64,000 nucleotides of DNA. Origin: Mycobacterium sp. (GTDB lineage: Bacteria > Actinomycetota > Actinomycetes > Mycobacteriales > Mycobacteriaceae). Each line of letters begins with the position of its first letter. Within the stretch, counting starts at the first letter, position 1. Both the position numbers and the translations under genes were made by a program. This document shows, one piece after another, positions 20,298 to 55,775 of the stretch. The notes under the pieces were generated by a model, which saw nothing but the letters and a program-made list of their open reading frames with translations, had not been told where the DNA came from and ran no database searches. The stretch lies in the NCBI GenBank assembly GCA_025966225.1, contig JAOPVI010000048.1, forward strand, positions 12,138-76,137, written 5' to 3'.

Positions 20298-23200
20298 ATG
20301 GAGTCGGGACGATCGTGTCGGGCCTGCGGTCTGGGCCTGCGGTCCGGTGCCCGGTTCTGCGATGGATGTGGCGCACCGACGGGCACCGACCCCGCTCTGG
20401 CCGAGTACAAGCAGGTCACGATTCTGTTCGCCGATGTCGTCCGGTCCATGGACATCGCCGCTCGCGTCGGCCCGGAGCGACTGCGGGAAATCATGACCGA
20501 GTTGGTCAGCCGCTCGGCTGTTGTAGTCGAGCGCAGTGGCGGAACGCTGAACAGCTACACCGGCGACGGCATCATGGCGCTGTTCGGGGCGCCGGCAGCC
20601 TTGGAGGACCACGCATTTCGTGCGTGCGTGGCCGCGCTCGACCTTCAACACGCTGCGGAACCACTCGCCGGCGACGTGATGCGCCACGACGGCGTGGTGC
20701 TCCAGCTTCGCATCGGCATCAACTCCGGCCAGGTGATAGCGGGCGAGATCAGCCCGACGAGTTACACCGCGATCGGCGATCAGGTCGGCTTTGCGCAGCG
20801 GATGGAATCCGTCGCCCCGCCCGGCGGTGTCATGTTGAGTGAGGCCACCGCACGGTTGGTCGAGGGCGTTGCGGCACTGGGTGATCTCGAGCTGGTGCGT
20901 ATCAAGGGCGCTGACGAGCCGGTGCAGGCCCGCCGCCTCCTCGACATGAAGGAGCGTCGCATCCGCCCCGTGGGCCACGAGGCGCCGGTGATCGGGCGGC
21001 AGCACGAAATCGGCTCACTCACCACGTTCCTGGAACAGGCGATGCGCGGTGACGCATCAGTGGTTCGAGTGACCGGACCGGCGGGCATCGGCAAGAGCAG
21101 GCTGATCGGTGAAGTCACGACGACGGCCGTTGACCGCGGCGCAGAAGTGTTCTCCACCTTCTGCCAGTCCCACACCGGGGACGTTCCGTTCCACGCGATT
21201 TCCGGCCTGCTGCGGGCGGTCTTCGAGGTCGACGAGCTCGACATCGACGCGGCGCGGGAGCGGGTGCGGGTGCGGCTGCCCGATTCCGACAACGAGGACC
21301 TGATTCTGCTCGACGATCTGCTGGGCATTCGTGACACCGCCGGTGGGTTGCCGGCTGTCGATCCAGAGGCGCGACGCCGGCGGCTGGCACGGTTGGTGGA
21401 GACAGCGATCTCGGCGAGTACTCCCGCGGTGTACGTGATCGAGGACGTGCACTGGATCGACGAGGTCAGCGAATCGATGCTCGTCGACTTCGTCGCAACG
21501 GTTTCCGGAACGTCGGCGCTCGTCCTTATCACCCACCGTCCCGAGTATCAGGGCACACTCAGCCACATTGCGGGAGCTGAGGCGATTGAGCTTGCCCCGC
21601 TTGATGGTTCACACGGGTCGGCGTTGACCGCGCTGCTGGTCGGCAGGCGCCCGTCGACCGCCGGACTCGCGACGCAGATTGCCGAACGTGCCGCCGGGAA
21701 CCCGTTCTTCACCGAGGAGATCGTGCGCGACCTCGTCGAACGAAAGATTCTCGAGGGCCACCGCGGCGAGTATGAGTGCCGCCGCGACGCTGCGGAGGTC
21801 AGCGTGCCCGCGACCGTACAGGCCACCATCGCCGCGCGCATCGACCGCCTTGGTGCACGTGCGAAGCGGACACTGAACGCCGCGGCGGTCGTCGGGTCTA
21901 GGTTCAATGCGGATTTGCTCGCCGAAGTGCGCAGTGACTCCATGCTTGGGGAGTTGATGGACGCCGAGCTGATCGATGCGCTCGATTCCCCTGCTGCCGA
22001 GTACGCGTTCAGACACCCGCTGATCCGCACGGTGGCCTACGAATCACAACTGAAATCGGAACGGGCGCAACTGCATCGGCAGCTGGCTGAGGTCATCGAG
22101 CGCCGCCAGCCGACGGCGGCACACGAGAACGCTGCGCTCATCGCGACGCACCTGGAGGCGGCGGGCGACCAACGTGGAGCGTTCGGTTGGCACATGCGCG
22201 CGGCGGGATGGTTGACCGACCGCGACCTCGGCGCGGCCCGAGCGAGTTGGCAGCGGGCTCGAATGGTCGCTGACAGGCTGCCCGGTGACGAGCCCGACCG
22301 GCTAGCGATGCAGATAGCGCCTCGCACCCGGCTCTGCGGCAGCATGTGGATGGCTGGCGGCACGGTCGCCGACACCGGTTTCGACGAACTGCGCGAGCTC
22401 TGCGAGGCGAAGGGCGACAAGGTATCGCTCGCGATTGGCATGTCCGGACTGGTCATGGCGCTGTCAGGGCATCAACGTCTCGTCGAGGCGTCAAGTCTGG
22501 CATCGGAGCTGACTGCGCTGGTCGAGGCGCTTGGAGAGTCCTCACTGACCGTCAATCTGCTCATCGCGGCCGTCTACGCCAAATCCGAGGTCGGTGAGAT
22601 GACCGAAGCTCTTGGCTTGGCCCAACGCGTCATCGACCTGGCCGATGGCGATCTCACGATGGGTGACAAGCTCTTCGGCTCACCGCTGACGCTCGCGACT
22701 CGGATGCGCTGCCTCATTCGACTGTGTCTGGGTATCGACGGCTGGCGATCCGATGCCGACGCGGCTATCGCGATGGCTGCCCCGCTCGCTCCGAAGAATC
22801 TCGTTACCGCGATCTTCTACAAGTACATCGTCGCAATACCCGTCGGCGCCCTGGCCGCCGACGCTGTCGCCTTGCGCGAGACCGCCGATGCCCTGCGTGT
22901 GGCCGAGCAAACCAGCGACGAGTACACCTTGGCAGCGGCCCAGCTCACCCGAGGACTCGTCCTCGTCCGCCAAGACGATCCGCACCGGGAGGAAGGCTTC
23001 ACGCTGCTCACCCAGGCGCGGGACACGGCACTGGCGAAGGGGTTCACGATGAATGCGCTGGCAATTGTCGATCCCGAGATCGCAAGGGAGCGGTCCCGAA
23101 ACGGTGATCTCGACGGTGCAATCGAACTCGCCCGAGCGGCCATTGACGACATGTTCGACAGTGGCGCAATGTACTTGCGCGGGGTGGCCACCACGATTCT

Positions 23201-23441
23201 GGTGGAGTCGCTGCTGGAGCGCGGAGCCGATCGTGACCTGCGGGAGGCACAGGCGGCCATCGACCGGTTGGCAGGAGTGCCCACGGAGCCCGGATTCATA
23301 CTGCACGAACTGCCCTTGCTACGGCTGCGCGCTTTGATGGCGCGGGCGCAGGGCAGCGAGCAGCCCTACCGCGAGCACATGGCGCGGTACCGCGCGAAAG
23401 CGTTGGCGGCCGGATTCGAGCCGCTCGCCACTTCGGGCTGA
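20298..23441 (+). CDS. zinc-ribbon - class III adenylate/guanylate cyclase - AAA/STAND ATPase - TPR-like protein (no LuxR output)
   Basis: ORF of 1047 aa. It has an N-terminal CRACG...FCDGCG zinc ribbon, the cyclase signature VTILFADVVRSMD...YTGDGIMALFGAP, the P-loop VTGPAGIGKSRL and a long helical C-terminal region. Confidence 0.9.
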   Translation: MESGRSCRACGLGLRSGARFCDGCGAPTGTDPALAEYKQVTILFADVVRSMDIAARVGPERLREIMTELVSRSAVVVERSGGTLNSYTGDGIMALFGAPAALEDHAFRACVAALDLQHAAEPLAGDVMRHDGVVLQLRIGINSGQVIAGEISPTSYTAIGDQVGFAQRMESVAPPGGVMLSEATARLVEGVAALGDLELVRIKGADEPVQARRLLDMKERRIRPVGHEAPVIGRQHEIGSLTTFLEQAMRGDASVVRVTGPAGIGKSRLIGEVTTTAVDRGAEVFSTFCQSHTGDVPFHAISGLLRAVFEVDELDIDAARERVRVRLPDSDNEDLILLDDLLGIRDTAGGLPAVDPEARRRRLARLVETAISASTPAVYVIEDVHWIDEVSESMLVDFVATVSGTSALVLITHRPEYQGTLSHIAGAEAIELAPLDGSHGSALTALLVGRRPSTAGLATQIAERAAGNPFFTEEIVRDLVERKILEGHRGEYECRRDAAEVSVPATVQATIAARIDRLGARAKRTLNAAAVVGSRFNADLLAEVRSDSMLGELMDAELIDALDSPAAEYAFRHPLIRTVAYESQLKSERAQLHRQLAEVIERRQPTAAHENAALIATHLEAAGDQRGAFGWHMRAAGWLTDRDLGAARASWQRARMVADRLPGDEPDRLAMQIAPRTRLCGSMWMAGGTVADTGFDELRELCEAKGDKVSLAIGMSGLVMALSGHQRLVEASSLASELTALVEALGESSLTVNLLIAAVYAKSEVGEMTEALGLAQRVIDLADGDLTMGDKLFGSPLTLATRMRCLIRLCLGIDGWRSDADAAIAMAAPLAPKNLVTAIFYKYIVAIPVGALAADAVALRETADALRVAEQTSDEYTLAAAQLTRGLVLVRQDDPHREEGFTLLTQARDTALAKGFTMNALAIVDPEIARERSRNGDLDGAIELARAAIDDMFDSGAMYLRGVATTILVESLLERGADRDLREAQAAIDRLAGVPTEPGFILHELPLLRLRALMARAQGSEQPYREHMARYRAKALAAGFEPLATSG

Positions 23442-23653: not shown

Positions 23654-24580
23654 CTATCCCACGGCCTCCTCGACTAGGCCGTCAGTCGTCCACTCCCGTT
23701 GCGGCAGCACATCTCTCAGCAAGCGGAGCAGCGCCGGGTTGGTACTGTCGCCGCGCCACACCGCGTCCAATTCGACCGGCCGCTCCCGGAACGCCCCGAT
23801 CGATCGGAACACCACCCCTTCGGGATGCAGCGTCGCCGCCGACGCGGGCACCAAGGCGATCCCGATCTGCGAGCGCACCAGCACCAGCATCGTGTGCACC
23901 TGCGTCACGTACTGCACGTAGCGCGGTGTTGCACCGGCGATGGTGAACGTGCTGATCAGCAGTTGGTTGAAATACCGGGCCTGCACCGGCGAGTACATGA
24001 TGACGTCCTCGCCGTCGAGGTCATTCAGCGTCAACTGACGGCCCAGGTCCGCCAGCGGGTGCCCCATCGGTAGCGCGGCGATCAGCTGTTCGTGCAACAG
24101 CGGCCGCGACACCAGGCCAGGGCGCTTCACCGGCGGGCGTGCCATCCCGAGGTCCAATTCACCGTTCAGCAGGCCCTCTAGCTGCACCGACGTCACCATC
24201 TCGCGCAGCTCGAGCTTCACGTCTGGCAGCTTCTCCCGCGCAGCCTCGAGCAGCAGCGGCAGCACGACGTGTGCCGACGCCGCGGTGAAGCCGACGACGA
24301 CGGTGCCGAGGTCCCCAGCGGGTACGCGCCTCACCGTCATCGCCGCGCCCTCGGCCAGCTGCAGGATCCGACGCGCGTCGGGAAGGAACGCCACCCCGGC
24401 GGGGGTGAGCGTCACGGATCGAGTTGTCCGGTCGATCAGCTGAACGCCGAGTTCGCCCTCGATCTGTTGAATCTGCCTGCTCAGCGGCGGCTGGGTCATG
24501 TGAAGCCGTTCAGCGGCGCGCCCGAAGTGCAGTTCCTCGGCTACGGCGATGAAGCACGACAGCCGCCCGGATGAGAACAC
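23654..24580 (-). CDS. LysR-family transcriptional regulator
   Basis: ORF of 308 aa with the N-terminal wHTH FIAVAEELHFGRAAERLHMTQPPLSRQIQQIE and a typical LTTR length. Confidence 0.9.
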   Translation of the reverse strand: MFSSGRLSCFIAVAEELHFGRAAERLHMTQPPLSRQIQQIEGELGVQLIDRTTRSVTLTPAGVAFLPDARRILQLAEGAAMTVRRVPAGDLGTVVVGFTAASAHVVLPLLLEAAREKLPDVKLELREMVTSVQLEGLLNGELDLGMARPPVKRPGLVSRPLLHEQLIAALPMGHPLADLGRQLTLNDLDGEDVIMYSPVQARYFNQLLISTFTIAGATPRYVQYVTQVHTMLVLVRSQIGIALVPASAATLHPEGVVFRSIGAFRERPVELDAVWRGDSTNPALLRLLRDVLPQREWTTDGLVEEAVG

Positions 24581-24651: not shown

Positions 24652-24912
24652 TCAGGGCCTCGAATTCGGGGTGGATGCTCTGTCGGCGAACTCGCCGGCG
24701 TCGAGAGCGTGGAATTCGCCTGTGCCGCAGGCGATGAAGACTCCGCCCGGGCCTGCGTCGACGCCCTTGGCGACGTGCGCGGCGAGCTTGGTCAGGTCGA
24801 CCTCGCCCGACACGGTGAAGGGTGTGACGGGAAAGAACAGTACGCCTTCGAGCATGTCGTGGAACTGCTCGCTGGATGGGCTGGGTCTGTCAGACTTGGG
24901 TGAGGCGTCCAT
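24652..24912 (-). pseudogene. 5-dehydro-4-deoxyglucarate dehydratase (KdgD/DapA family), N-terminal ~65-85 codons only
   Basis: EQFHDMLEGVLFFPVTPFTVSGEVDLTKLAAHVAKGVDAGPGGVFIACGTGEFHALDAGEFADR aligns with the remembered KdgD N-terminus (LLSFPLTDFD...AAGGTGEFFSL). It then stops at 24652, only 72 nt from the LysR start. Start is ATG at 24912 or 24855. Confidence 0.72.
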
Positions 24913-26488
24913 CGACGCGGCGCCATATCCCGTCGGGATTTCCGTCGGCAATCGCGCTGGGCAGCAGTGCCTTCGGCACGTCCTGATAGGCGACGGGTCG
25001 CAGAAACCGTTCGACCGCGCGTGCTCCGACGGAGGTCGTGCGCGAGTCGGACGTGGCGGGCGACGGGCCGCCGTGCACCATCGCGTAACCAACCTCGACG
25101 CCAGTCGGCCAGCCGCCGAACAGGATTCGCCCGACCTTGGTCTCCAGCGTCGGCAGCAGCTTGCCCGCATCGTCGTAGTCCGACTCGTCGGCGTGAACGG
25201 TCGCAGTCAGCTGGCCTTCCAAACTTGCTGCTATGTCGTTCATCTCATCGACGTCGGTGCATCGCACGACGAGGCTCGACGAGCCGAACACCTCGGCCTG
25301 CAGCACCTCGGACCCCCGGAAGGACGCGGCGTCCGTGCTGAACAGCGCCGCCCGGCAGGTGGTGGGGTTGTCGGCCGCCTCGCCGCGGACGACGAGGTCA
25401 GCGGAGCCGGCCAACGCGGCGACGCCGTCGGCGTAGCTCTTGGCAATTGCGGGCGTCAGCATCGGGGTGGCTGCCGTCTGCACCAGCGCATCGCGGGCCG
25501 CGGAGAGGAACGCGTCGAGCCCAGCCCCGTCGACGGCGATGACCAGCCCAGGGTTGGTGCAGAACTGGCCGGAGCCCATGGTCAGCGAGCCGACGAAGGC
25601 GCGACCCAGGTCGGCACCCCGCGTCGAAAGCGCCCCACCGAGCAGAAACACCGGGTTGATCGAACTCATCTCCGCGTACACCGGGATGGGCTCTGGCCGG
25701 GCCGCGGCGGCTGCGACGAGAGCCGTTCCGCCGGCTCGGGATCCGGTGAAGCCGACGGCCTTGATCCGTGGATCGGTGACGAGTGCGGTACCGAGGCCAG
25801 GACCGGAACCGAACAGAAGCGAGAACGTCCCTGCGGGCAATCCGGAGGACGCGACGGCGCCGGCGATGGCGCGGGCCACCAGTTCGGACGTGCCGGGATG
25901 CGCATCGTGCCCCTTGACGACGACGGGGCAACCGGCCGCGAGTGCCGATGCGGTGTCGCCGCCTGCGACCGAGAACGCCAGCGGGAAGTTGCTGGCCCCG
26001 AACACGGCGACCGGGCCGAGCGGGACGGCCCGCTGGCGAATGTCGGGCCGCGGCAATGGGGTTCGGTCGGGCTGCGCAGGGTCGATGCGTGCCTCAGTCC
26101 AGCTGCCATCGCGCAACACGGCGGCGAAGAGCCGGAGCTGTCCGGTGGTTCGGCCCACCTCGCCTGCGATCCGGCCTTCGGGCAAGCCGGTCTCTGTCAC
26201 CGCCCGGCCGACGAGCGTCGTCGAGCTCGCTTCGAGGTTGTCGGCAATGGCCTCCAGGAAGAGTGCGCGTTGCTCGGAGGTGGTGGCCCGGTAGGTGGGG
26301 AAGGCCTCGGCGGCGGCGGCGCACGCGGTCTCGACGTTGGACACATCGCCGTGGCGGTACGCCGGTTCGACGGCGGTGCCGGCGGCGGGGTCGAAGCCAC
26401 GCACCTCCGGCCCGGTGCCCGTGACGGGAACGCCGGCGATGATCATCTGTCCGGTCAGGTGGCTGGAGTCGTGGATCGTTGCTGTCAC
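24890..26488 (-). CDS. NADP-dependent aldehyde dehydrogenase, alpha-ketoglutaric semialdehyde (2,5-dioxovalerate) dehydrogenase-like
   Basis: ORF of 532 aa with the catalytic Cys region GSGQFCTNPGLV. The length and N-terminus are typical of the KGSADH subgroup. It is adjacent to the kdgD remnant. Confidence 0.85.
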   Translation of the reverse strand: MTATIHDSSHLTGQMIIAGVPVTGTGPEVRGFDPAAGTAVEPAYRHGDVSNVETACAAAAEAFPTYRATTSEQRALFLEAIADNLEASSTTLVGRAVTETGLPEGRIAGEVGRTTGQLRLFAAVLRDGSWTEARIDPAQPDRTPLPRPDIRQRAVPLGPVAVFGASNFPLAFSVAGGDTASALAAGCPVVVKGHDAHPGTSELVARAIAGAVASSGLPAGTFSLLFGSGPGLGTALVTDPRIKAVGFTGSRAGGTALVAAAAARPEPIPVYAEMSSINPVFLLGGALSTRGADLGRAFVGSLTMGSGQFCTNPGLVIAVDGAGLDAFLSAARDALVQTAATPMLTPAIAKSYADGVAALAGSADLVVRGEAADNPTTCRAALFSTDAASFRGSEVLQAEVFGSSSLVVRCTDVDEMNDIAASLEGQLTATVHADESDYDDAGKLLPTLETKVGRILFGGWPTGVEVGYAMVHGGPSPATSDSRTTSVGARAVERFLRPVAYQDVPKALLPSAIADGNPDGIWRRVDGRLTQV

Positions 26489-26598
26489 GAAGCCAACGCT
26501 AGGACTCCAACCGATACATGTCCAAGACCAACGTTGGGACTATTGATAGCAGAACTGCATGAGTGATGGCCGACGTGGACCGAGCGCCGTGGGCCGCG

Positions 26599-27042
26599 CT
26601 ACGCAGACGCGCGACCCCGCAGCGCCAGCCGGTTGAGCACGTCACGGCCTAGGCCGTCGACGTCCGTCCGTGAGCCCTCGGGTATCAAGGTGACGCCGTC
26701 CGCCACAGCCGCCAACTCGATGTCGGCGATGAGCCCGGTCAGCCCGTCGACGGTCCCGGCATACTGCACCGTCGGCGCCTCGCGGGCTGCGAGCCACGCC
26801 CTGGCCGAACGAAAGTCACCCGTCACCGTGACCCGGACGTCGAGGATCACGTCGACGTCAGGCCGGTCCGCGCGGATGCGAGCCCCGTCGCGCTTGGCGA
26901 GTTGGAGGTCGCGTGCCGCGAACCGGACGACCGGAGGACCGCCCGCCGTCAACTCGGTCCAGTCGTCGTCCGCCTCACTGGCGAAGAAAAGCCTCACCTT
27001 CCGCACGGTACGGGTGCGACCCCGCTGCTGCCACCGTTGCAA
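26599..27042 (-). CDS. hypothetical protein; resembles only the C-terminal third of LLM-class flavin/F420 oxidoreductases (possible gene fragment)
   Basis: ORF of 147 aa (TTG start) with a stop codon immediately upstream. The tail YAGTVDGLTGLIADIELAAVADGVTLIP recalls the C-terminal GTP..vA..l..l...G.DG..L motif of LLM enzymes. The assignment is weak. Confidence 0.3.
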   Translation of the reverse strand: MQRWQQRGRTRTVRKVRLFFASEADDDWTELTAGGPPVVRFAARDLQLAKRDGARIRADRPDVDVILDVRVTVTGDFRSARAWLAAREAPTVQYAGTVDGLTGLIADIELAAVADGVTLIPEGSRTDVDGLGRDVLNRLALRGRASA

Positions 27043-27112
27043 TCAGCGAGAATCCATCGGAATGACCGTGCGGCGTCGCGGGGCCGACGCTCAGGCTTAG
27101 TAGTTTGTAGAC

Positions 27113-30100
27113 GTGACAATGGACGTGGGGGGCGGAGCACTGTCAGCCGATGCGCGGCCGGGCATCCCAGCTCAGTACCTGCTATCGGCGCAAGCACCCG
27201 ACCCACGCACGCTGATCGACGTGCTCTACGCCACCGCCGAGCGTCACCCCGACTCCCCCGCCCTCGACGACGGTGACGTTCAACTCACCTACGCCGAACT
27301 CGTCGCCGACATCGAAGAGAGCGTCGAGTGGCTGGCCGCGCGGGGAATCGGCCGCGGCGACCGCATCGGCATCCGGATGCCATCCGGCAGTTACGCGCTC
27401 TACGTCGCGATCCTGTCGGCCTTGGCCGTCGGCGCCGCCTATGTGCCCGTCGACGCAGACGATCCCGACGAACGTGCCGAATTGGTGTTCGGCGAGGCAG
27501 GCGTCGTCGGGGTCATCACCGAGGCCGGCCTGGTACGTGGGGTTGGTTTGTCCCGCGGTTGGCGGGCAGGTGAGCCGTTGGCGCGCGACGACGCCTGGAT
27601 CATCTTCACCTCCGGGTCCACCGGAACGCCCAAGGGCGTCGCGGTGACGCATCGCAACGCCGCGGCCTTCGTCGACGCCGAGGCCCAGATCTTCCTGCAG
27701 GACAATCCACTGGGCCCCGGCGACCGCGTGCTCGCCGGGCTGTCGGTGGCGTTCGACGCGTCGTGCGAGGAGATGTGGCTGGCCTGGCGCCACGGTGCGT
27801 GTCTGGTGCCCGCCCCGCGCTCGTTGGTCCGCAGCGGCATGGACCTGGGCCCGTGGTTGGTGTCCCGGGACATCACGGTCGTCTCGACGGTGCCGACGCT
27901 CGCAGCGCTCTGGCCCGCCGAGGCGCTCGAAGCCGTGCGACTGCTGATCTTCGGCGGGGAAGCCTGCCCTCCGGAGCTCGCCGAGCGACTCGCCGTCGAG
28001 GGCCGCGAAGTGTGGAACACCTACGGGCCCACCGAGGCCACCGTCGTGGCGAGCCTCGCGCGACTCCACGGCAATTCGCCCGTGAGCATCGGGCTGCCGC
28101 TGCCGGGCTGGGATCTGGCGGTCGTCGACAAGGACGGCCAGCCCGTGGCAAAGGGCGAGGTCGGCGAGTTGGTCATCGGCGGCGTCGGCCTGGCGCGCTA
28201 CCTGGATCCGGAGAAGGACGCCGAGAAGTACGCCCCGATGCCCACCCTGGAGTGGGCCCGCGCGTACCGCAGCGGTGACCTGGTCCGCCTCGAAGCCGAC
28301 GGGCTCTACTTCCAGGGCCGCGCCGACGACCAGGTCAAGGTGGGTGGGCGCCGCATCGAACTCGGCGAGGTCGACTCTGCGCTGGTGAACCTGCCAGGCG
28401 TCAGCGGCGGCGCCGCCGCGGTGCGCCGCACCACTAGTGGCACGCCGCTGCTGGTCGGCTACATCGCCAGCGCGGACCCCGAATTCGACCTGGCGGCGGC
28501 GCGGGCCGCGCTGGCCGACTCGCTGCCCGCCGCGCTGGTGCCCCGGCTGGTGCTCGTCGACGAGCTGCCGACGCGGACGTCGGGCAAGGTGGATCGCAAT
28601 GCCCTGCCGTGGCCCATCGAGGGCGACGACGGCTCCGACGGACCGGAGCTTGCAGGAACGATGGGCTGGCTGGCCGGGCTGTGGCGAGACGTATTGGCCG
28701 CGCCGGTCGACGGACCCGAGGCCGACTTCTTCGCGCTCGGCGGCGGTTCACTGTCGGCGGCACAGCTGGTGGCCGCCCTGCGCGCGCGCTACCCGCAGGT
28801 GACCGTCGCCGACCTGTACGACCATCCGCGACTCGGCTCGCTCGCCGGTTACCTCGATGAGCTCGACCCGCCCCCGAAGGTCGAAACCCGTTTGGTGAAG
28901 CCGGTATCCAGGTGGACCGAGTTGGCGCAGGTGGTGGCATCGGTACCGCTGGCCACGCTCGCGGGGATGCAGTGGGTGGTGTGGCTGGCCCTGCTCAACA
29001 ACGTCGCGGCGGCGCTGCACGTGGTGCCGTGGGCACAGCCGGTGAACTGGTGGTGGGTACTCGCAGGCTTCCTGGTGTTCGTAACCCCGTTGGGGCGCAT
29101 GGGCATTGCGATACTCGGCGCCCGCATCCTCGTCGGAGGACTCGAGCCGGGCACCTACCGGCGGGGTGGGAGCGTCCACCTCCGGGTCTGGCTCGCCGAA
29201 CGACTCGCCGACGCCAGCGGCGCGGAGAACCAGGCCGGCGCGCCGTGGTTGGTGTACTACGCACGCGCACTGGGCAACAGGGTCGGCAAGGGTGTCGACC
29301 TGCACTCTGCACCTCCCGTCACCGGGATGCTGACCCTGGGCCACCGGTGCTCGATCGAACCCGAGGTCGACCTCACCGGGCACTGGATCGACGGCGATCT
29401 CTTCCACGTCGGTCCGATCACCGTCGGCAACGACGCTACGATCGGCGCGCGAACAACTCTGCTGCCCAACGCAATCATCGGCAAGAACGCCGACGTCGCA
29501 CCGGGTTCCGGCGTCATCGGCAAGGTCAAGGCCGGCCAGTACTGGAAGGGTTCACCGGCGATGAAGTCGGGCAAGGCCCGGCACCCGTGGCCTGACGAAC
29601 GCCCACGCCGCGCCCCGCTGTGGGTCGCGGTGTACGGTGTGACGTCCGTCCTGCTCGGCGGGGTTCCGCTGGTCGCGCTCGGCGCCGGACTTGCCTTGTT
29701 GGGCTGGGCGATTCGTGACACCCCAACGCTTCGGGCCGCGCTCGTCCCCGTTGCCATCTGGACGCCCGTCGCCACCATCGTCGCCGTGGTGGTCTATGCC
29801 GCGACGACGGTCATCGGGGTGCGGATGCTGGCGCTGGGCCTGCGCGAGGGTTATCACCCGGTGCGCAGTCGAGTCGGTTGGCAGTTGTGGGCCACCGAGC
29901 GGCTGATGGATGCAGCCCGCAACTATCTGTTCCCCATCTACGCTAGCCTGCTCACGCCATGGTGGCTGCGGCTGCTCGGCGCGAAAATCGGTAAGGGCAC
30001 CGAGATCTCGACCGCCCTGCTCACGCCGAAGTTCACGGTGGTCGAGGACGGCGCGTTCCTGGCCGACGACACCATGGTGGCGTCCTACGAGCTGGGTGGC

Positions 30101-31054
30101 GGATGGATCCACGTCTCGACGGCCACCGTCGGCAAGCGGGCCTTCCTCGGCAACTCCGGCATCACCCAGCCGGGCCGGCGGGTGCCCGACGACGGGCTGG
30201 TGGCCGTGCTCAGTGCGACGCCGCACAAGGCCAAGGCGGGTTCGTCGTGGCTGGGCAGCCCACCGATCCGGCTGCGCCGCAAACCGACGGCCGCCGACGC
30301 GCTCCGCACCTTCCATCCCTCGCTGCGGCTGAAGGTCATGCGCGCGACGGTCGAGACGTTCCGGGTGATCCCGTTGATCGTGACGTTCGCCATCGGCGTG
30401 GCGGTGCTTGGCGGATTGCAATTGTTGGCCCGCGAATGCGGCTGGTGGTGGACGGTGGCCGCAGGCGGAGTCGTGCTGCTCGCGGCGGGCGCGCTGGCGG
30501 GGGCCGTCGCGGTCATCGCGAAGTGGTTGGTGGTCGGACGCATCAAGGCCGTCGAACATCCGCTGTGGTCGTCGTTCGTGTGGCGCAACGAGGTCTCCGA
30601 CACCTTCGTCGAGACGGTGGCGGGGCCCTGGTTCGCCAGGGCGGCCAGCGGCACCCCGGTGATGAATCTGTGGCTACGGGCGCTCGGGGCCTCGGTCGGC
30701 CGGGGCGTGTGGTGTGAAACCTACTGGCTGCCAGAGGCCGACCTGGTCACCCTCGGCCGGGGCGCGACGGTCAACCGCGGCTGCGTGGTTCAGACCCACC
30801 TGTTCCACGACCGCATCATGCGCTTGGACACCGTCGTCGTCGAAGCCGGCGCCACCCTGGGCCCCCATTGTGTGGCCCTGCCTGCCGCCAAGATCGGCGC
30901 GGGGGCAACGGTCGGACCGGCCTCCCTGGTCATGCGTGGCGACGAAGTGCCGCCGTCGACGCGATGGCAAGGGAACCCGATCGCCCCGTGGAATGCCTTC
31001 CGCAAGAAGCGCCGCAGCGCGCCCGACAAGACTCCCAAGGAATCCGCCGCGTGA
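27113..31054 (+). CDS. Pls/PosA-type single-module non-ribosomal peptide synthetase: adenylation - thiolation - six TM helices interleaved with three hexapeptide-repeat (acyltransferase-like) domains
   Basis: ORF of 1313 aa. A-domain cores present are IIFTSGSTGTPKGV, FDAS, NTYGPTE, YRSGD, GRADDQVKVGGRRIELGEV and PTRTSGKVDR. The carrier-protein motif is FFALGGGSLSAAQL. There follow three TM pairs, each followed by a left-handed beta-helix-like repeat region (e.g. IGARTTLLPNAIIGKNADVAPGSGVIGKV). No HHxxxDG condensation motif or thioesterase domain was noticed. Confidence 0.88.
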   Translation: MTMDVGGGALSADARPGIPAQYLLSAQAPDPRTLIDVLYATAERHPDSPALDDGDVQLTYAELVADIEESVEWLAARGIGRGDRIGIRMPSGSYALYVAILSALAVGAAYVPVDADDPDERAELVFGEAGVVGVITEAGLVRGVGLSRGWRAGEPLARDDAWIIFTSGSTGTPKGVAVTHRNAAAFVDAEAQIFLQDNPLGPGDRVLAGLSVAFDASCEEMWLAWRHGACLVPAPRSLVRSGMDLGPWLVSRDITVVSTVPTLAALWPAEALEAVRLLIFGGEACPPELAERLAVEGREVWNTYGPTEATVVASLARLHGNSPVSIGLPLPGWDLAVVDKDGQPVAKGEVGELVIGGVGLARYLDPEKDAEKYAPMPTLEWARAYRSGDLVRLEADGLYFQGRADDQVKVGGRRIELGEVDSALVNLPGVSGGAAAVRRTTSGTPLLVGYIASADPEFDLAAARAALADSLPAALVPRLVLVDELPTRTSGKVDRNALPWPIEGDDGSDGPELAGTMGWLAGLWRDVLAAPVDGPEADFFALGGGSLSAAQLVAALRARYPQVTVADLYDHPRLGSLAGYLDELDPPPKVETRLVKPVSRWTELAQVVASVPLATLAGMQWVVWLALLNNVAAALHVVPWAQPVNWWWVLAGFLVFVTPLGRMGIAILGARILVGGLEPGTYRRGGSVHLRVWLAERLADASGAENQAGAPWLVYYARALGNRVGKGVDLHSAPPVTGMLTLGHRCSIEPEVDLTGHWIDGDLFHVGPITVGNDATIGARTTLLPNAIIGKNADVAPGSGVIGKVKAGQYWKGSPAMKSGKARHPWPDERPRRAPLWVAVYGVTSVLLGGVPLVALGAGLALLGWAIRDTPTLRAALVPVAIWTPVATIVAVVVYAATTVIGVRMLALGLREGYHPVRSRVGWQLWATERLMDAARNYLFPIYASLLTPWWLRLLGAKIGKGTEISTALLTPKFTVVEDGAFLADDTMVASYELGGGWIHVSTATVGKRAFLGNSGITQPGRRVPDDGLVAVLSATPHKAKAGSSWLGSPPIRLRRKPTAADALRTFHPSLRLKVMRATVETFRVIPLIVTFAIGVAVLGGLQLLARECGWWWTVAAGGVVLLAAGALAGAVAVIAKWLVVGRIKAVEHPLWSSFVWRNEVSDTFVETVAGPWFARAASGTPVMNLWLRALGASVGRGVWCETYWLPEADLVTLGRGATVNRGCVVQTHLFHDRIMRLDTVVVEAGATLGPHCVALPAAKIGAGATVGPASLVMRGDEVPPSTRWQGNPIAPWNAFRKKRRSAPDKTPKESAA

Positions 31055-32448
31055 CCCGCTCCGCGAAGAAGACCGGCGCTGGGGGTCACCCCGCTTGCGG
31101 GGGAGAGCGCGGCGACCGGGGGAAGAATGGAGCACGCAAGGGCAGCACCCCACCCGTCATCGACCCCTACCTTCCACACAACGGCAACTTCGGGTTCCGG
31201 GTGTCCCGGTACGAATTGGAGCTCGAGTACAAGGTCCAGCTCAACCGGCTGTCGGGCACGGCGACCATCACCGCCGCGACGCTCGCATCGCTGAAGACGT
31301 TCACGCTCGATCTCGCCGACGCCCTGACGGTGTCCAAGGTGTCCGTCAACGGCCATCGGCCCGCTCAGTTCCGTCACGCGAGTGGCAAGCTGCACGTCAC
31401 GTTGTCCTCGACGCTGCCCGCAGGCGCCGCCATGTCGATCAGCGTGCGCTACGCAGGGAACCCGCGACCCATCCAATCCCTATGGGGCGAAGTCGGATTC
31501 GAGGAGCTCTCGGCCGGAGCACTGGTCGCTGGCCAACCGAACGGCGCCGCGACCTGGTTCCCCTGCGACGACCACCCAAGCTCAAAGGCCAGCTACCGCA
31601 TCCAGCTCAGCACCGAGAACCCCTATCGCGCGGTCGTCAACGGCAAGTTGCTGTCCCGCCGCACCCGTGCGGCGATGACCACGTGGACGTACGAGCAGGC
31701 CGAGCCGACGTCGACGTACCTGATGACCCTGCAGATCGGGGTGTACGAGGCGCACCGGCTGGCGAAGGCGCCCGTCGAAATGAATGCCGCGTTGCCGCAA
31801 CGCTTGCGCCGCAACTTCGACCACGACTTCGGCCGCCAGCCCGACATGATGAAGCTCTTCGTCAAACTGTTCGGCCCGTATCCACTCGCCACGGGCCACA
31901 CCGTCGTCGTGACCGACGACGACCTCGAGATTCCGCTTGAGGCGCAGGGCATTTCGATCTTCGGCGCGAACCACTGCGACGGGCATCGCAGCTCGGAGCG
32001 GCTCATCGCACACGAGCTTGCCCACCAGTGGTTCGGCAATTCGGTGACCGCGCGGCGCTGGCGCGACATCTGGCTACACGAAGGATTCGCGTGTTACGCG
32101 GAGTGGTTGTGGTCAGAGGAGTCCGGCGGCCGCAGCGCCGACGAGTGGGCCCGGCACTACCACCAGCGGCTCAAGTCGTCGGCCCAGAATCTGCTGCTGG
32201 CCGACCCCGGCCCTAAGGACATGTTCGACGACCGCGTCTACAAGCGCGGAGCCATCACGCTGCACGTGTTGCGACGCACGATCGGCGACGAGAACTTCTT
32301 CAACCTGCTTCGGGGCTGGACCGCGCGCTACTGGCACACCACCGCGGTCACCGACGACTTCACCGGGCTGGCAGCCAATTACACGGACCAGTCGCTGCGT
32401 CCGCTCTGGCAGGCCTGGCTGTACTCGACGGCTGTCCCCGACCTGTGA
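31051..32448 (+). CDS. M1-family zinc metallopeptidase (aminopeptidase N-like)
   Basis: GTG at 31051 overlaps the NRPS stop (GTGA). The motif HELAHQWFGNSV...WLHEGFA fits HEXXH-X18-E. The N-terminus is basic and no signal peptide is evident. Confidence 0.88.
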   Translation: MTRSAKKTGAGGHPACGGERGDRGKNGARKGSTPPVIDPYLPHNGNFGFRVSRYELELEYKVQLNRLSGTATITAATLASLKTFTLDLADALTVSKVSVNGHRPAQFRHASGKLHVTLSSTLPAGAAMSISVRYAGNPRPIQSLWGEVGFEELSAGALVAGQPNGAATWFPCDDHPSSKASYRIQLSTENPYRAVVNGKLLSRRTRAAMTTWTYEQAEPTSTYLMTLQIGVYEAHRLAKAPVEMNAALPQRLRRNFDHDFGRQPDMMKLFVKLFGPYPLATGHTVVVTDDDLEIPLEAQGISIFGANHCDGHRSSERLIAHELAHQWFGNSVTARRWRDIWLHEGFACYAEWLWSEESGGRSADEWARHYHQRLKSSAQNLLLADPGPKDMFDDRVYKRGAITLHVLRRTIGDENFFNLLRGWTARYWHTTAVTDDFTGLAANYTDQSLRPLWQAWLYSTAVPDL

Positions 32449-33722
32449 CCGACGGCGCGTCGGCAGTACCAGCACCCGGCCCGATCCCTCAGGGACCCGT
32501 GACCAGGGCCAGTGTCGCCCGGGTTGGCATCGCGACCGTCATCAGCGCGCTGTGCGGGTATGCGGTGCTCTACCTCGCCGCCCGCGACCTCGAACCAGCA
32601 GGCTTCTCGGTGTTCGCCGTGTTCTGGGGCGCGTTCGGGTTGCTGGCAGGAGCGGCCAACGGCTTGTTGCAGGAGTCCACCCGCGAGGTGCGCCAGGTCC
32701 AGCAGGGCCCGGAAACGACGGGCCCGCAGCTCCATCCGATCCGGGTGGCCGTCGTGGTCGGCCTGGTCGCCGCAGCTGTCGTCGCGGGCACCGCCCCGCT
32801 GTGGTCGAGTCACGTCTTCGTCGAGTCACGTTGGCTCAGCGTCGGCCTGCTCAGCGTGGGCATCTTTGGGTTCTGCCTGCACGCGACGCTGCTTGGCGTG
32901 CTGGCCGGGGTCAACCGCTGGAGCCAGTACGGGACACTGATCGTCGGCGACGCGACGGGCCGTGTCGTCGTCGCGACCGCCACGTTCCTGGTCGGCTGGG
33001 GTCTGGTCGGCTACCTGTGGGCCACCGTCGCTGGGTCGATCGCCTGGCTGGTGCTGCTGTTGGCGTCACCGGCGACGCGCGCGGCGGCACGCGTGCTAAC
33101 CCCCGGCACCACCATGACGTTCCTTCGCGGCGCCTCTCATTCGATCGCGGCGGCAGGCGCCAGCGCCATCCTGATCATGGGCTTCCCCGTGCTACTGAAG
33201 GCCACGTCGCATGAACTCGGCGCGACCGGCGGCGTGGTGATCCTCGCGGTGACGTTGACGCGCGCCCCGCTGCTTGTTCCGTTGAACGCGATGCAGGGCA
33301 ACCTCATCGCCCACTTCGTCGACGAGCGGTCCGCGCGACTGCGCGCGTTGATCATGCCTGCGTTGGTGGTGTTGGGCCTCGGCGCGCTCGCGGTGCTCGT
33401 CGCCGGGTTGGCCGGGCCGTGGCTGTTGCAGGTGGCGTTCGGACCCGAATACCGGGCGGGCGGCGGCCTGCTGGCCTGGTTCACGGCCGCGGCCATCGCC
33501 ATCGCGCTGCTGACCCTGACCGGGGCCGCGACCGTCGCGGCCGCACTGCATCGGGCGTACGCGGCCGGGTGGGTCGGTGCGACGCTGGCCTCGGCGTTGC
33601 TGTTGCTGCTGCCAACGCCGTTGGAGACGCGAACCGTGGTCGCCCTGCTGTGCGGGCCGCTGGTCGGAATCGTGGTGCATCTGGTCGCGTTGGTAAGGAG
33701 CGAGCCAGGTCCGAACGTGTAG
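32445..33722 (+). CDS. polytopic membrane protein, Rv3630-like (MOP/Wzx flippase-like)
   Basis: ORF of 425 aa that is hydrophobic throughout, with about 12-14 predicted TM helices. GTG at 32445 overlaps the M1 peptidase stop (GTGA). The flippase assignment is an inference from topology and context. Confidence 0.7.
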   Translation: MTDGASAVPAPGPIPQGPVTRASVARVGIATVISALCGYAVLYLAARDLEPAGFSVFAVFWGAFGLLAGAANGLLQESTREVRQVQQGPETTGPQLHPIRVAVVVGLVAAAVVAGTAPLWSSHVFVESRWLSVGLLSVGIFGFCLHATLLGVLAGVNRWSQYGTLIVGDATGRVVVATATFLVGWGLVGYLWATVAGSIAWLVLLLASPATRAAARVLTPGTTMTFLRGASHSIAAAGASAILIMGFPVLLKATSHELGATGGVVILAVTLTRAPLLVPLNAMQGNLIAHFVDERSARLRALIMPALVVLGLGALAVLVAGLAGPWLLQVAFGPEYRAGGGLLAWFTAAAIAIALLTLTGAATVAAALHRAYAAGWVGATLASALLLLLPTPLETRTVVALLCGPLVGIVVHLVALVRSEPGPNV

Positions 33723-33723
33723 T

Positions 33724-34437
33724 TTGTTCGGCATCAGCACCTCAGACACCCGTTACGACGACGTTTGGATCGTCGTCCCAGCCTTCAACGAAGCGAGCGT
33801 GATCGCCGAGGTCATCGCCGACGTTCGCTCCGTCTTCCGTCATGTGGTGTGCGTCGACGACGGCAGCAGCGACGACACCAGCGACCGGGCCTTCTCCGCC
33901 GGCGCTCACGTCGTGCGCCATCCGGTCAATCTCGGGCAGGGTGCGGCCATCCAGACCGGCGTCGAGTACGCCCGGAGCAGGCCGGGCGCCGCGGTGTTCG
34001 CGACGTTCGACGCCGACGGCCAGCACCGCGTCAAGGACGTCGTGGGCATGATCGACCGGCTCACCTCCGAGGACCTCGACATCGTCGTCGGTACCCGGTT
34101 CGGCGACCGCGTCCCCGAGGGCATGCCGAAGCTGAGGCGACTGCTGTTCCCCATCATCGCCAAGGTCAGCCCCGCCAGCCGCAAGCTCGGCCTCACCGAC
34201 GCGCACAACGGGCTGCGGGTGTTCGACAAGACCGTTGCCGATGGCCTCAACCTCACGATGAGCGGCATGAGCCACGCCAGCGAGTTCGTGGCGCTGATCG
34301 TCGAGAACGGTTGGCGGGTGGCCGAGCAACCGGTCGAGATCCTGTACACCGAATACTCGATGTCGAAGGGCCAGCCGCTGGTCAACGGGGTCAACATCAT
34401 CGTCGACGGGTTGCTGCGCGGAAGGATGCGCCGATGA
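33724..34437 (+). CDS. ppgS: GT2 polyprenyl-phosphate glycosyltransferase (Rv3631/PpgS-like)
   Basis: ORF of 237 aa with a TTG start 1 nt after the upstream stop. GT-A motifs VVPAFNE, DDGSSD and DADGQH are present. The symbol comes from synteny with the remembered Rv3631. Confidence 0.82.
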   Translation: MFGISTSDTRYDDVWIVVPAFNEASVIAEVIADVRSVFRHVVCVDDGSSDDTSDRAFSAGAHVVRHPVNLGQGAAIQTGVEYARSRPGAAVFATFDADGQHRVKDVVGMIDRLTSEDLDIVVGTRFGDRVPEGMPKLRRLLFPIIAKVSPASRKLGLTDAHNGLRVFDKTVADGLNLTMSGMSHASEFVALIVENGWRVAEQPVEILYTEYSMSKGQPLVNGVNIIVDGLLRGRMRR

Positions 34438-34775
34438 ACTGGATCCAGGTACTGCTGATCGCTGCGGTCGTCGTGCTTCTGGTGTACCTACTGGCTTCCC
34501 GCCGCAAGGCGCAGTCGAGGGCCTGGGTGAAGGTCGGCTACGTGCTCTTCGTCATCGCGGCGGTGTACGCCATCGTGCGACCCGACGACACCACCGTGGT
34601 GGCCAACTGGCTTGGCATCGGGCGCGGGGCTGACCTGCTCGAGTATGCGTTCATCATCGCGTTCCTGTTCACCACGATCAGCGCATACATGCGCTTCAAG
34701 GACCTCGAATTGCGCTATGCCCGTTTGGCGCGCGCGGTGGCGCTGGAAGGGGCCAGGGCGCCGGAAGATGGTTAG
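34434..34775 (+). CDS. small membrane protein DUF2304 (Rv3632-like)
   Basis: ATG at 34434 overlaps the ppgS stop (ATGA). The 113 aa begin MNWIQVLLIAAVVVLLVYLL and contain about 3 TM helices. Confidence 0.75.
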   Translation: MNWIQVLLIAAVVVLLVYLLASRRKAQSRAWVKVGYVLFVIAAVYAIVRPDDTTVVANWLGIGRGADLLEYAFIIAFLFTTISAYMRFKDLELRYARLARAVALEGARAPEDG

Positions 34776-34909
34776 TTCGCCGCCCGCAGCTCAGTGACTC
34801 GGCGGGATTCCTTCGAGCAACGCGGCCAGTACCTGGTCCGTTGCGCCTCGAGCTCGGGCTGTGGCAGCACCGCCCGGATGAGCGCTGCCCCGTCACTCAC
34901 AATCTTTTC

Positions 34910-37701
<2,792 letters not shown>

Positions 37702-38983: not shown

Positions 38984-38997
38984 CGCGGGCGAATGTG

Positions 38998-39070
38998 AGC
39001 CGCCTCCGGGAATCGAACCCGGGACCTTCTCATTACGAGTGAGACGCTCTACCGACTGAGCTAAGGCGGC
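38998..39070 (-). tRNA. tRNA-Thr (anticodon CGT)
   Basis: The reverse complement is GCCGCCTTAGCTCAGTCGGTAGAGCGTCTCACTCGTAATGAGAAGGTCCCGGGTTCGATTCCCGGAGGCGGCT. It shows a cloverleaf with a 7-bp acceptor stem, a T-arm GGTTCGATTCC and the anticodon loop CT-CGT-AA. No CCA is encoded. Confidence 0.92.
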
Positions 39071-54251: not shown

Positions 54252-54350
54252 GGAAAAAGGGACGACCCCCGCCAGGGGGGGAGGAGGCGGAGGTCGTCGT
54301 GTATCAGCCCCGGGGGGTCGGGCTGATCCACACCCGGCATAAGCCGAGTG
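54252..54350 (-). ncRNA. 6C-family sRNA (M. tuberculosis B11 / ncRv13660c equivalent)
   Basis: The minus-strand RNA folds into hairpin AUCAGCCC-GACCCCCCG-GGGCUGAU (54304-54326). A 13-bp terminator stem GACGACCUCCGCC/GGCGGGGGUCGUC with loop UCCUCCCCCCU (54261-54298) follows, then CCUUUUUCC. Two loops each with six consecutive C is the 6C hallmark. The location in the ssd/HAD IGR matches the remembered position of B11. The 5' end is estimated. Confidence 0.75.
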
Positions 54351-55399: not shown

Positions 55400-55775
55400 T
55401 CGGTCACGATAGGGAGTCGGCGGCGATTGCCCCTTGATGTGACCGCCGTCACGGAGTACAAAGGAGTCACGGACGCTCGGTGAGGCTAAGTTCGAGTCGG
55501 AAGAGAAGATTCGCTCTCCCAAGTCGAGCGACCTAGCACGGATCGCGGTACCCACGCGGAGCACATGCCGCGTTATGGCTAGAGTGTTGCGGGCCTGCGT
55601 AATTGCGAAGAGCGGTCAACCACGACGATCCCTTGGGTGGGATTGCAGTTGAAGCGCAGCGGAAGGACGCCGAGGCCACCCACGTAACCCACCGAGCACG
55701 CTTGGTAGCCACGAATCCGTGCTAGCGGGCGGCGAGCCGAATTCAATTCGGAGCGCCGCCTGCTTCACTTTGCTG
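55400..55775 (+). ncRNA. candidate Ms1 / MTS2823-like 6S-type sRNA (boundaries approximate)
   Basis: A 410-nt non-coding, lower-GC gap lies between the HAD (Rv3661-like) and Rv3662c-like genes, which is where MTS2823/Ms1 lies in M. tuberculosis as remembered. No credible ORF is present. Several hairpins are visible and a strong plus-strand terminator sits at 55725-55775. No sequence comparison was possible. Confidence 0.45.
55725..55775 (+). terminator. intrinsic terminator-like hairpin
   Basis: GCGGGCGGCG-AG-CCGAA-TTCAA-TTCGG-AG-CGCCGCCTGC forms 15 bp including one G-U pair. It is followed by TTCACTTTGCTG. It lies 17 nt beyond the stop of the convergent Rv3662c-like gene, so it may act in both directions. 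Confidence 0.6.

Follow-up and report, generated by a model that had tools for sequence, protein, structure and literature searches.

Does a single-module, membrane-spanning synthetase gene in a mycobacterium specify a poly(amino acid), and if so, which one? We investigated this question in a 64,000-nucleotide stretch of DNA from Mycobacterium sp. (contig JAOPVI010000048.1; hereafter the window), in which an open reading frame at 27113..31054 encodes a 1313 aa protein related to the synthetases of cationic homopolymers. All features described below lie on the forward strand unless stated otherwise.

Architecture of the synthetase

The frame has a GTG start, with ATG at 27119 or GTG at 27125 as possible alternatives, and its GC3 of 0.87 is in the range of real genes in the window. 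Pfam identified an AMP-binding domain (aa 40-362, E=2.7e-64), a PP-binding domain (aa 519-581) and a Hexapep match (aa 769-802). Because it gave no other family at E≤0.01, the protein has no recognisable condensation or thioesterase domain, in agreement with the original prediction of one adenylation (A) and one carrier domain and neither of these. The NCBIfam profile TIGR02353 ('Pls/PosA family NRPS') matched aa 605-1290 over profile positions 2-695 of 695 with 757.4 bits, against a cutoff of 423.1. This comparison, proposed earlier as a check on the C-terminal ~700 aa, upheld the Pls/PosA-type architecture. Based on the open reading frame, TIGR02353, GC3 and homologues, the gene is a pls orthologue encoding a single-module NRPS-like synthetase. 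On sequence grounds, membership of the Pls/PosA-type homopoly(amino acid) synthetases is fully supported by the architecture, the TIGR02353 score, the predicted catalytic residues and the absence of condensation and thioesterase domains.

The A domain (aa ~30-505; 27200..28627) was delimited by Pfam AMP-binding, TIGR01733, the match to the S. albulus Pls A-domain structure (PDB 7WEW), its motifs and its specificity code. All ten core motifs (A1-A10) are present, as had been noted from the sequence. The carrier domain (aa 519-581; 28667..28855; PP-binding E=3e-13) has the expected GGGSLSA phosphopantetheine site; GGGSL begins at aa 543, placing the carrier serine at Ser546. In Pls/PosA-family A domains, Asp 235 contacts the alpha-amino group, Glu 239 the side-chain amine, and Lys 517 is catalytic (PMC10522769). 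The alpha-amino-binding Asp and the catalytic Lys, both named earlier as residues to check, are found as Asp215 (in FDAS) and A10 Lys492, and the side-chain-amine-binding Glu is E219. In all 75 homologues compared, Lys492, Ser546 and the first eight code positions (D215 and E219 among them) are unchanged. This established the catalytic and binding residues of the enzyme together with its A-domain and carrier architecture.

The remainder of the protein contains six hydrophobic helices, which hydropathy placed in three pairs (aa ~607-625/648-670, 836-868/873-910 and 1078-1107/1112-1144), as originally described; their pLDDT in an AF2 model was 80-92. The hairpins TM1-TM2 (aa ~607-670; 28931..29122), TM3-TM4 (aa ~836-910; 29618..29842) and TM5-TM6 (aa ~1078-1144; 30344..30544) are each followed by a soluble domain: C1 (aa ~673-835; 29129..29617), C2 (aa ~913-1077; 29849..30343) and C3 (aa ~1147-1295; 30551..30997). 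Residue mapping through a Streptomyces homologue (locus L002) showed that two chain-length residues of Pls, W646 and L883, are retained as W640 in the first hairpin and L873 in the second.

The claim that C1, C2 and C3 are all hexapeptide-repeat domains stood in part. The three are homologous to each other, with hhalign probabilities of 98.7% (C1-C2), 97.6% (C2-C3) and 99.3% (C1-C3) and E-values from 3e-12 to 4e-20. Of the three, C1 alone reaches the Hexapep threshold of Pfam (E=3e-8); C3 falls below it (24 bits vs 27) and C2 has no Pfam match. C3 is the best conserved of the three, with 65% identity to its Streptomyces near-orthologue, compared with 45% for C1 and 25-38% for the TM hairpins. 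The C-terminal polymerising region of Pls-type enzymes has no solved structure. In our AF2 model, whose mean pLDDT is 60.9 and which is poor in the beta-helix parts, we read the short-strand pattern of C2 as resembling a beta-helix. Foldseek searches with this model returned mostly proteins of the left-handed beta-helix (LbH) fold, acetyltransferases among them, as top matches, although the best (E=0.017) was not significant. LbH acyltransferases (LpxA, GlmU, and serine, galactoside and maltose acetyltransferases) share the Hexapep signature of C1 and, below threshold, C3, and three packed beta-helices resembling a trimeric acyltransferase have been modelled in the PosA paper. The synthetase differs from them in that a single chain contains all three 'subunits', with TM hairpins between, and in that Pls-type enzymes take their acyl group from a carrier-protein thioester, not from acyl-CoA or from ACP supplied in trans.

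Predicted substrate and product

The specificity code (D215, A216, E219, S258, I279, G281, T303, V311, V312 and K492) reads DAESIGTVVK. S. albulus Pls, for which lysine specificity has been shown experimentally, has the same ten residues (Supplementary Table 2, PMC10522769). Comparison of this Stachelhaus code, proposed with the original prediction, hence placed the enzyme with the Lys type. Lys-activating enzymes have the code DAESIGTV[VI]K, with Ala at position 2, a position that sets substrate length; the codes for ornithine (PosA, DMEHNGTVSK), Dab (DFECLSAVTK), Dap (DFEYVGTVTK) and beta-lysine (DGESVSVVNK) are different (PMC10522769 and its Supplementary Table 2). The A domain is ~66% identical to that of Pls and scored 632.7 bits against 7WEW vs 202.8 bits against the PosA A domain (8G95), a measure of closeness that sets Pls against PosA.

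We therefore predict that the substrate is L-lysine and the product ε-poly-L-lysine, because the code is identical, the A domain is ~66% identical, and a pldII-like peptidase gene follows in translational coupling (see below). Such codes forecast the activated amino acid, but neither the linkage nor the chain length. The earlier view that both substrate and product were unknown was too strong. In our assessment it is likely that the enzyme would activate lysine and polymerise it through the epsilon-amino group to ε-poly-L-lysine, with a PldII-like peptidase coupled to it. The A domain would form lysyl-AMP from L-lysine and transfer the lysyl group to the phosphopantetheine arm of Ser546, where it forms a thioester. 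The C-terminal region, with its three TM hairpins and three hexapeptide-repeat (left-handed beta-helix type) domains at the cytoplasmic face, would catalyse attack on the thioester by the epsilon-amino group of free lysine or of a free ε-lysine oligomer. Repetition of this attack would generate an epsilon-linked L-lysine homopolymer that at no point is bound covalently to the enzyme, and which the M1 zinc peptidase would hydrolyse, as PldII does. The sequences show the architecture, the catalytic and binding residues, the code and the gene pair; the identity of the product, the length of its chains, the way it is exported and what it does in mycobacterial physiology are inferences.

The enzyme shares with S. 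albulus Pls (BAG68864; 7WEW) the A-T-(TM pair + C domain) x3 organisation, the identical code and the equivalents of W646 and L883, and both genes have a coupled M1 peptidase gene downstream. It differs in its mycobacterial host, in its cell-wall modification genes further downstream, in a product that is here predicted only, and in overall sequence: across 1287 aa it is 54% identical to the L002 protein, the nearest of the Streptomyces homologues examined, which itself has an A domain 92% identical to the one in S. albulus Pls. Production of ε-poly-L-lysine by coryneform Pls has reportedly been confirmed by heterologous expression, and the abstract of a preprint supports this. The Pls of Corynebacterium variabile, compared here by its description, is a homologue outside Streptomyces and nearer to mycobacteria; the study makes no mention of mycobacteria (PMC8117764). 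The δ-poly-L-ornithine synthetase PosA of Acinetobacter baumannii (8G95-8G98) shares TIGR02353, the architecture and D, E and K at code positions 1, 3 and 10; it has Met in place of Ala at position 2 and activates ornithine.

The Pls/PosA family also includes enzymes for ornithine, Dab, Dap, beta-lysine and D-lysine, codes are predictive only, and PosA weakly activates L-Lys besides Orn (PMC10522769). It is nevertheless very improbable that the mycobacterial enzyme polymerises one of these instead, as 10/10 code positions match Pls, while other characterised members differ at three to six. Furthermore, no supply genes for Dab, Dap or beta-lysine were found alongside, and the gene context is that of a Lys-type pls-pldII pair, which differs from the context of other synthetases (PMC8117764).

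The peptidase and the downstream genes

Immediately downstream of pls lies a gene (31051..32448) for a 465 aa M1-family zinc metallopeptidase, identified by Pfam Peptidase_M1 and Peptidase_M1_N. Its GTG start overlaps the TGA stop of pls (GTGA at 31051-31054), its zinc motif HELAH-x18-E begins at aa 321, and it is 41% identical to the counterpart that the S. albulus-like locus L002 has at the equivalent place. A translationally coupled pls-pldII operon is known from Streptomyces and Corynebacterium (PMC8117764, PMC9223678). We found the gene pair in 67/74 full-length actinobacterial loci, L002 included, with the 4-bp overlap in at least 23 of the 67 paired loci, which established that it is conserved. 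From its zinc motif, coupling and conserved position, the protein is the probable PldII counterpart, a putative polymer-degrading enzyme that may serve in self-protection or turnover. Two features count against this reading. Neither a signal peptide nor a TM segment is evident in the peptidase, whereas PldII has been reported to be active outside the membrane (PMC9223678), and by our own placement it has PLEAQ where exo-acting M1 enzymes have GxMEN.

Three further genes follow. The first (32445..33722), whose GTG start overlaps the peptidase stop, encodes a 425 aa polytopic, Wzx/COG2244-like membrane protein named 'O-antigen/teichoic acid export membrane protein' by JGI; it has no Pfam or NCBIfam match, and probably belongs to the same operon. 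The second (33724..34437) is ppgS, for polyprenyl-phospho-N-acetylgalactosaminyl synthase (NF058614 equivalog, 409.5 bits vs a cutoff of 370). The third (34434..34775), whose start overlaps the ppgS stop, encodes a small DUF2304 membrane protein (PF10066, E=7e-29) resembling the PpgS partner Rv3632. From pls to the DUF2304 gene, the first two junctions in the window overlap by GTGA, the third leaves a gap of 1 bp and the fourth overlaps by ATGA, and no convincing terminator was found between any of the five genes. The Wzx-like gene follows the peptidase gene in the same orientation in all Mycobacteriaceae loci examined and in Speluncibacter, and ppgS and the DUF2304 gene come next in most of these Mycobacteriaceae loci. 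This linkage to the pls pair appears specific to Mycobacteriaceae, being found elsewhere only in Speluncibacter.

Galactosamine (GalN), made via PpgS and Rv3632, is itself a cationic substituent of arabinogalactan (PMC9671496). Together with the conserved order, the packed junctions and the lack of a convincing terminator, this suggested an alternative in which the chemistry is the same, but the mycobacterial enzyme makes a short or cell-associated polycation for the envelope, linked to the galactosamine-modification genes, and not an antibiotic released from the cell. The fall in identity to the window protein with taxonomic distance, which resembles vertical descent more than the scattered occurrence of an antibiotic cluster, also points this way. 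We regard this alternative as unlikely, since adjacency is not function, loci outside Mycobacteriaceae and Speluncibacter have the pls-peptidase pair but lack these genes, and two mycobacterial loci (L045 and L076) retain pls, the peptidase gene and the membrane protein gene with ppgS absent within 3 kb downstream. M. tuberculosis carries Rv3630-Rv3632 and is not known to have pls, which also counts against it. An extended form of the proposal, in which the Mycobacteriaceae have joined the pls-pldII pair in one operon with the Wzx-like gene and the ppgS/Rv3632-type genes, would place ε-(oligo)lysine in a module for envelope charge, either wall-associated or regulated together with GalN decoration, instead of making it a secreted antibiotic, with the Wzx-like protein as GalN flippase or polymer exporter; we consider this a long shot. 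The linkage does make an envelope-charge hypothesis testable, and the Wzx-like protein is a candidate for the missing flippase of the GalN pathway.

Distribution and conservation

The mycobacterial source proposed earlier is borne out by the best named homologues, which are 84-95% identical and come from species of Mycobacterium or Mycolicibacterium, and by the mycobacterial Ms1 and 6C sRNAs that the window carries. NCBI-named mycobacterial orthologues are 79-95% identical to the window protein, the homologues in Mycobacteriaceae cover 84-99%, and a paralogue with 72% identity occurs on pMAH135-type plasmids of M. avium-complex strains. Family matches were present in at least 594 species-level genomes. 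The novelty first attributed to the gene was therefore overstated: orthologues occur in hundreds of actinobacterial species, NCBI names already identify it in many mycobacterial genomes, and Supplementary Table 2 of PMC10522769 lists a 'Mycobacterium' accession whose code is of the Lys type. As an identification it is routine and a fairly ordinary find, as standard pipelines already name pls and the specificity code already gives the substrate. The part of the novelty claim that stands is that we found no experimental report of ε-poly-L-lysine from any mycobacterium in the searchable literature.

This lack of reports, and the silence of many such clusters under laboratory conditions, might suggest that the gene is a silent or decaying relic, yielding no product whatever the conditions, but this is highly implausible given an intact 1313-codon frame with all catalytic motifs, a conserved operon structure and 79-95% protein identity across many species of Mycobacteriaceae, from which purifying selection can be argued.

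If the synthetase is active as predicted, many environmental mycobacteria would make ε-poly-L-lysine, a potent broad-spectrum polycation and approved food preservative, and M. avium-complex strains with pMAH135-type plasmids might make it too. The polymer could bear on how they compete in soil and water, on biofilm and surface charge, or on interactions with host cells.

Upstream of pls, and divergent from it across a 70-bp gap, lies a small conserved open reading frame of 147 aa (26599..27042, reverse strand; GC3 0.84) with no family match. Its homologues are directly upstream of pls in three loci (L001, L044 and L076) and 2-3.5 kb upstream in two others (L062 and L063), and Rhodococcus-group loci have ~40% identical frames 2-6 kb upstream. 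It has been called as a gene in L001, L083 and L084.

Domain architecture and predicted substrate of the synthetase

The synthetase gene (27113..31054, + strand, 1313 codons, GTG start) has a GC3 of 0.87, similar to that of the neighbouring real genes and against 0.70 in a spurious overlapping ORF upstream. Pfam placed an AMP-binding domain at aa 40-362 (E=2.7e-64), a PP-binding domain at aa 519-581 and a hexapeptide repeat block at aa 769-802. Because no further family was found at E<=0.01, we describe the protein as having neither a condensation nor a thioesterase domain. All ten of the ten adenylation core motifs were present, and the carrier serine is Ser546, within GGGSLSA. This bore out the original prediction of a 1313-aa protein with a single adenylation and a single carrier domain and with no condensation or thioesterase domain. 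A search of the C-terminal region with NCBIfam TIGR02353 ('Pls/PosA family non-ribosomal peptide synthetase') matched aa 605-1290 over the full profile length; the score of 757 bits exceeds the curated cutoff, which is 423 bits, and confirms that the Pls/PosA family had been correctly assigned. An exact-sequence database look-up of the 1313-aa protein gave no match.

Hydropathy analysis identified six hydrophobic helices arranged in three pairs, as had been proposed. If each pair is a hairpin, the A and T domains and the three soluble domains between and after the pairs (C1, C2 and C3) would all be cytoplasmic. The accompanying claim that each pair is followed by a hexapeptide-repeat domain held directly for C1, which scored above the Pfam Hexapep threshold; C3 fell slightly below it and C2 had no Pfam match, yet the three domains are mutually homologous by hhalign (probability 97.6-99.3%, profiles from 75 homologues). 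An AF2 model of the C-terminal 724 aa, built from a shallow alignment of 26 sequences that are 81-94% identical, had a mean pLDDT of 60.9, with good TM helices and poor beta-helix regions. Foldseek comparison of this low-confidence model with the PDB gave top matches mostly of the LbH fold, chiefly acetyltransferases and gamma-carbonic anhydrases, none of them significant (best E=0.017). In the published AlphaFold model of PosA, three left-handed beta-helices pack together above the six helices in the membrane (PMC10522769).

We placed the Stachelhaus positions via the conserved motifs FDAS, LLIFGGE, NTYGPTE and SGKVDR, and obtained the specificity code DAESIGTVVK (D215, A216, E219, S258, I279, G281, T303, V311, V312, K492). 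This code is identical to that of S. albulus Pls (DAESIGTVVK, Lys) and does not match those of PosA (DMEHNGTVSK, Orn), the Dab enzyme (DFECLSAVTK) or the Dap enzyme (DFEYVGTVTK); the same table of experimentally characterised enzymes gives DGESVSVVNK for beta-Lys (PMC10522769, Supplementary Table 2). The second code position (Ala, Met or Phe) determines the side-chain length accepted, and the Asp and Glu of the code bind the two amino groups of the substrate (PMC10522769). Among PDB entries, the Pls A domain (7WEW) matched the window A domain with 632.7 bits, and that of PosA (8G95) with only 202.8 bits. Since both the code and these scores point to Pls, L-lysine is the predicted substrate, and to have called the substrate unknown was too cautious. 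The code DAESIGTV[V/I]K was common to 75 of 75 proteins (74 from loci with a full-length synthetase, plus the window protein).

We consider it very probable that the synthetase is an epsilon-poly-L-lysine synthetase orthologue with a PldII-like peptidase. By homology with the characterised enzyme, lysine would be adenylated and then loaded onto the phosphopantetheine arm of Ser546. With the membrane-embedded C-terminal region as catalyst, free lysine or a free oligomer would attack the thioester through its epsilon-amine, and repeated rounds would yield epsilon-poly-L-lysine, which the M1 peptidase would then hydrolyse. In Pls, mutation of the linker residues W646 and L883 gives a shorter product (review PMC8506220). 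The equivalent residues, W640 and L873, are kept in the window protein, which hints that its product would not be drastically shortened.

The adjoining peptidase gene and inheritance of the pair

The GTG start of the M1-family zinc peptidase gene (31051..32448, + strand; HELAH-x18-E) and the synthetase stop codon TGA overlap (GTGA). In S. albulus, pldII adjoins pls; its product is a metallopeptidase that degrades epsilon-PL, and translational coupling of the two genes has been described (PMC9223678). An M1 peptidase lies immediately downstream of the synthetase in 67 of the 74 loci with a full-length synthetase, and the identical 4-bp start/stop overlap occurs in at least 23 of those 67. The locus of Streptomyces sp. 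MspMP-M5 (L002), with an A domain 92% identical to that of S. albulus Pls, encodes a 1319-aa synthetase whose W646 and L883 agree with the published Pls residues. The window synthetase is 54% identical to this protein over 1287 aa, and the peptidases encoded downstream of the two synthetases share 41% identity.

A scan with the Pls A-domain sequence as query, in which each bacterial species was represented by a single genome, found at least 594 related stretches, and the best 80 of these at least 594 matches were nearly all from named Actinomycetota. A protein search with the same domain had only partial proteins of <860 aa among its matches, and S. albulus Pls itself was absent from them. Among the fetched loci, identity to the window protein was 79-87% for Mycobacteriaceae synthetases, 66-71% for Rhodococcus, Nocardia, Gordonia and relatives, about 59-64% for Pseudonocardiales (e.g. 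Amycolatopsis, Lentzea and Saccharopolyspora) and 50-61% for Streptomyces and Micrococcales. Because identity drops as taxonomic distance grows, the pls-peptidase operon shows the pattern expected for old, vertical inheritance. Base composition near the synthetase is the same as in the remaining window, and we therefore saw no sign of a recently acquired island. Among named proteins, the best homologues come from Mycobacterium and Mycolicibacterium (84-95% identical), and the window carries an Ms1 small RNA (55469..55771, + strand, 280 bits) and, close to it, a 6C RNA (54257..54332, - strand, 88 bits). A tRNA-Thr(CGT) is located at 38997..39070 (- strand).

Upstream of pls, we rejected the + strand ORF 24671..26566 (631 aa) as a gene; it has a GC3 of 0.70, belongs to no family and is a shadow ORF, an example of the spurious long ORFs found in high-GC DNA. 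The real gene at this position encodes an aldehyde dehydrogenase (24890..26488, - strand; GC3 0.83, PF00171) that is 80% identical to a called gene at the Mycobacteriaceae locus L001. A small ORF of 147 aa (26599..27042, - strand) is divergent from pls across a 70-bp gap, and family searches gave only a sub-threshold, chance-level match. Homologues of this ORF occur on the upstream side of pls in several loci of mycobacteria; in loci of Rhodococcus, Prescottella and Antrihabitans they are about 40% identical and lie a few kb from pls, again upstream. Further upstream, 20298..23441 (+ strand) encodes a 1047-aa protein in which an AAA_16 ATPase domain comes after an adenylate/guanylate cyclase catalytic domain, and downstream of that gene is a LysR regulator (23654..24580, - strand).

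A mycobacterial gene string with arabinogalactan galactosamine genes

The start of a gene for a 425-aa polytopic membrane protein (32445..33722, + strand) overlaps the peptidase stop. A gene for such a protein of ~420 aa, mostly overlapping the peptidase gene by 4 bp, follows the peptidase in every Mycobacteriaceae locus examined (L001, L044, L045, L062, L065, L073, L076, L083, L084 and the window) and in a Speluncibacter locus, and was seen in no other fetched locus. The 425-aa protein had no match in Pfam or NCBIfam; its homologues carry the JGI name 'O-antigen/teichoic acid export membrane protein' and, in one UniRef entry, 'polysaccharide biosynthesis protein', and by these names it appears Wzx/COG2244-like.

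Directly downstream are ppgS (33724..34437, + strand; equivalog NF058614, 409.5 bits against a cutoff of 370), a Rv3632-like DUF2304 gene (34434..34775, + strand) and, on the opposite strand, a GalE-type epimerase gene (34910..35851, - strand). In most of the loci with the membrane protein gene, that gene is likewise followed by ppgS and DUF2304, with a GalE-type epimerase nearby on the other strand; ppgS was not found in the 3 kb fetched downstream at L045 and L076, though the membrane protein gene is kept there. In M. tuberculosis, PpgS and Rv3632 make polyprenyl-phospho-GalNAc and Rv3634c provides UDP-GalNAc, while the flippase and deacetylase that precede galactosamine transfer to arabinogalactan have no gene assigned (PMC9671496). 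By sequence similarity, ppgS, DUF2304 and the epimerase gene are an arabinogalactan galactosamine-modification gene set. Because its gene sits directly upstream of ppgS, the 425-aa protein is a candidate flippase of this pathway or, alternatively, a candidate polymer exporter.

In the window, pls, the peptidase gene, the Wzx-like gene, ppgS and DUF2304 appear to form one tightly packed, co-oriented string; the two cationic envelope-related products may be functionally linked, or the genes may simply lie side by side. Promoter and terminator scans of 26400..36000 gave no useful signal, with no promoters and three terminator-like sites against 3.7 expected. A 600-aa protein encoded downstream had no Pfam match. 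The interest of the locus rests on the putative polycationic polymer in mycobacteria and on this operon-level linkage to the arabinogalactan galactosamine genes.

Previous records and a plasmid paralogue in mycobacteria

According to the original prediction, no such polymer was known to have been described from mycobacteria, and here it stood: the full-text literature searched held no report of epsilon-poly-lysine production by any mycobacterium or of a NAPAA cluster, its mycobacterial matches for polylysine concerned reagent or drug-carrier uses only, and an AEM survey of coryneform Pls leaves mycobacteria unmentioned (PMC8117764). The novelty of the enzyme had been judged too generously. The NCBI pipeline names mycobacterial orthologues 'Pls/PosA family non-ribosomal peptide synthetase', the cluster class NAPAA of genome-mining tools covers such enzymes, and a Pls homologue with a Lys code is listed as 'Mycobacterium tuberculosis (PLV54557.1)' (PMC10522769, Supplementary Table 2). 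The window synthetase is therefore not a novel enzyme type; judged from its sequence, it is an unstudied enzyme of a well-known sort, with no difference in predicted chemistry. To our knowledge M. tuberculosis H37Rv has no such pls gene, and PLV54557.1 may come from a mislabelled or contaminated assembly.

Plasmid pMAH135 of M. avium subsp. hominissuis (L082; NZ_AP012556.1 62761..66741) carries a Pls/PosA paralogue with 72% identity to the window protein. The gene before it, of the PLP-dependent cysteine-synthase family, overlaps its start, and a Dap-type enzyme was suspected for that reason; this was ruled out because the code of the paralogue is the Lys code DAESIGTVVK. No M1 peptidase follows the paralogue at L082, and large NRPS genes and PE/PPE/WXG100 genes flank it. 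Near-identical copies are present on further M. avium and M. intracellulare plasmids.
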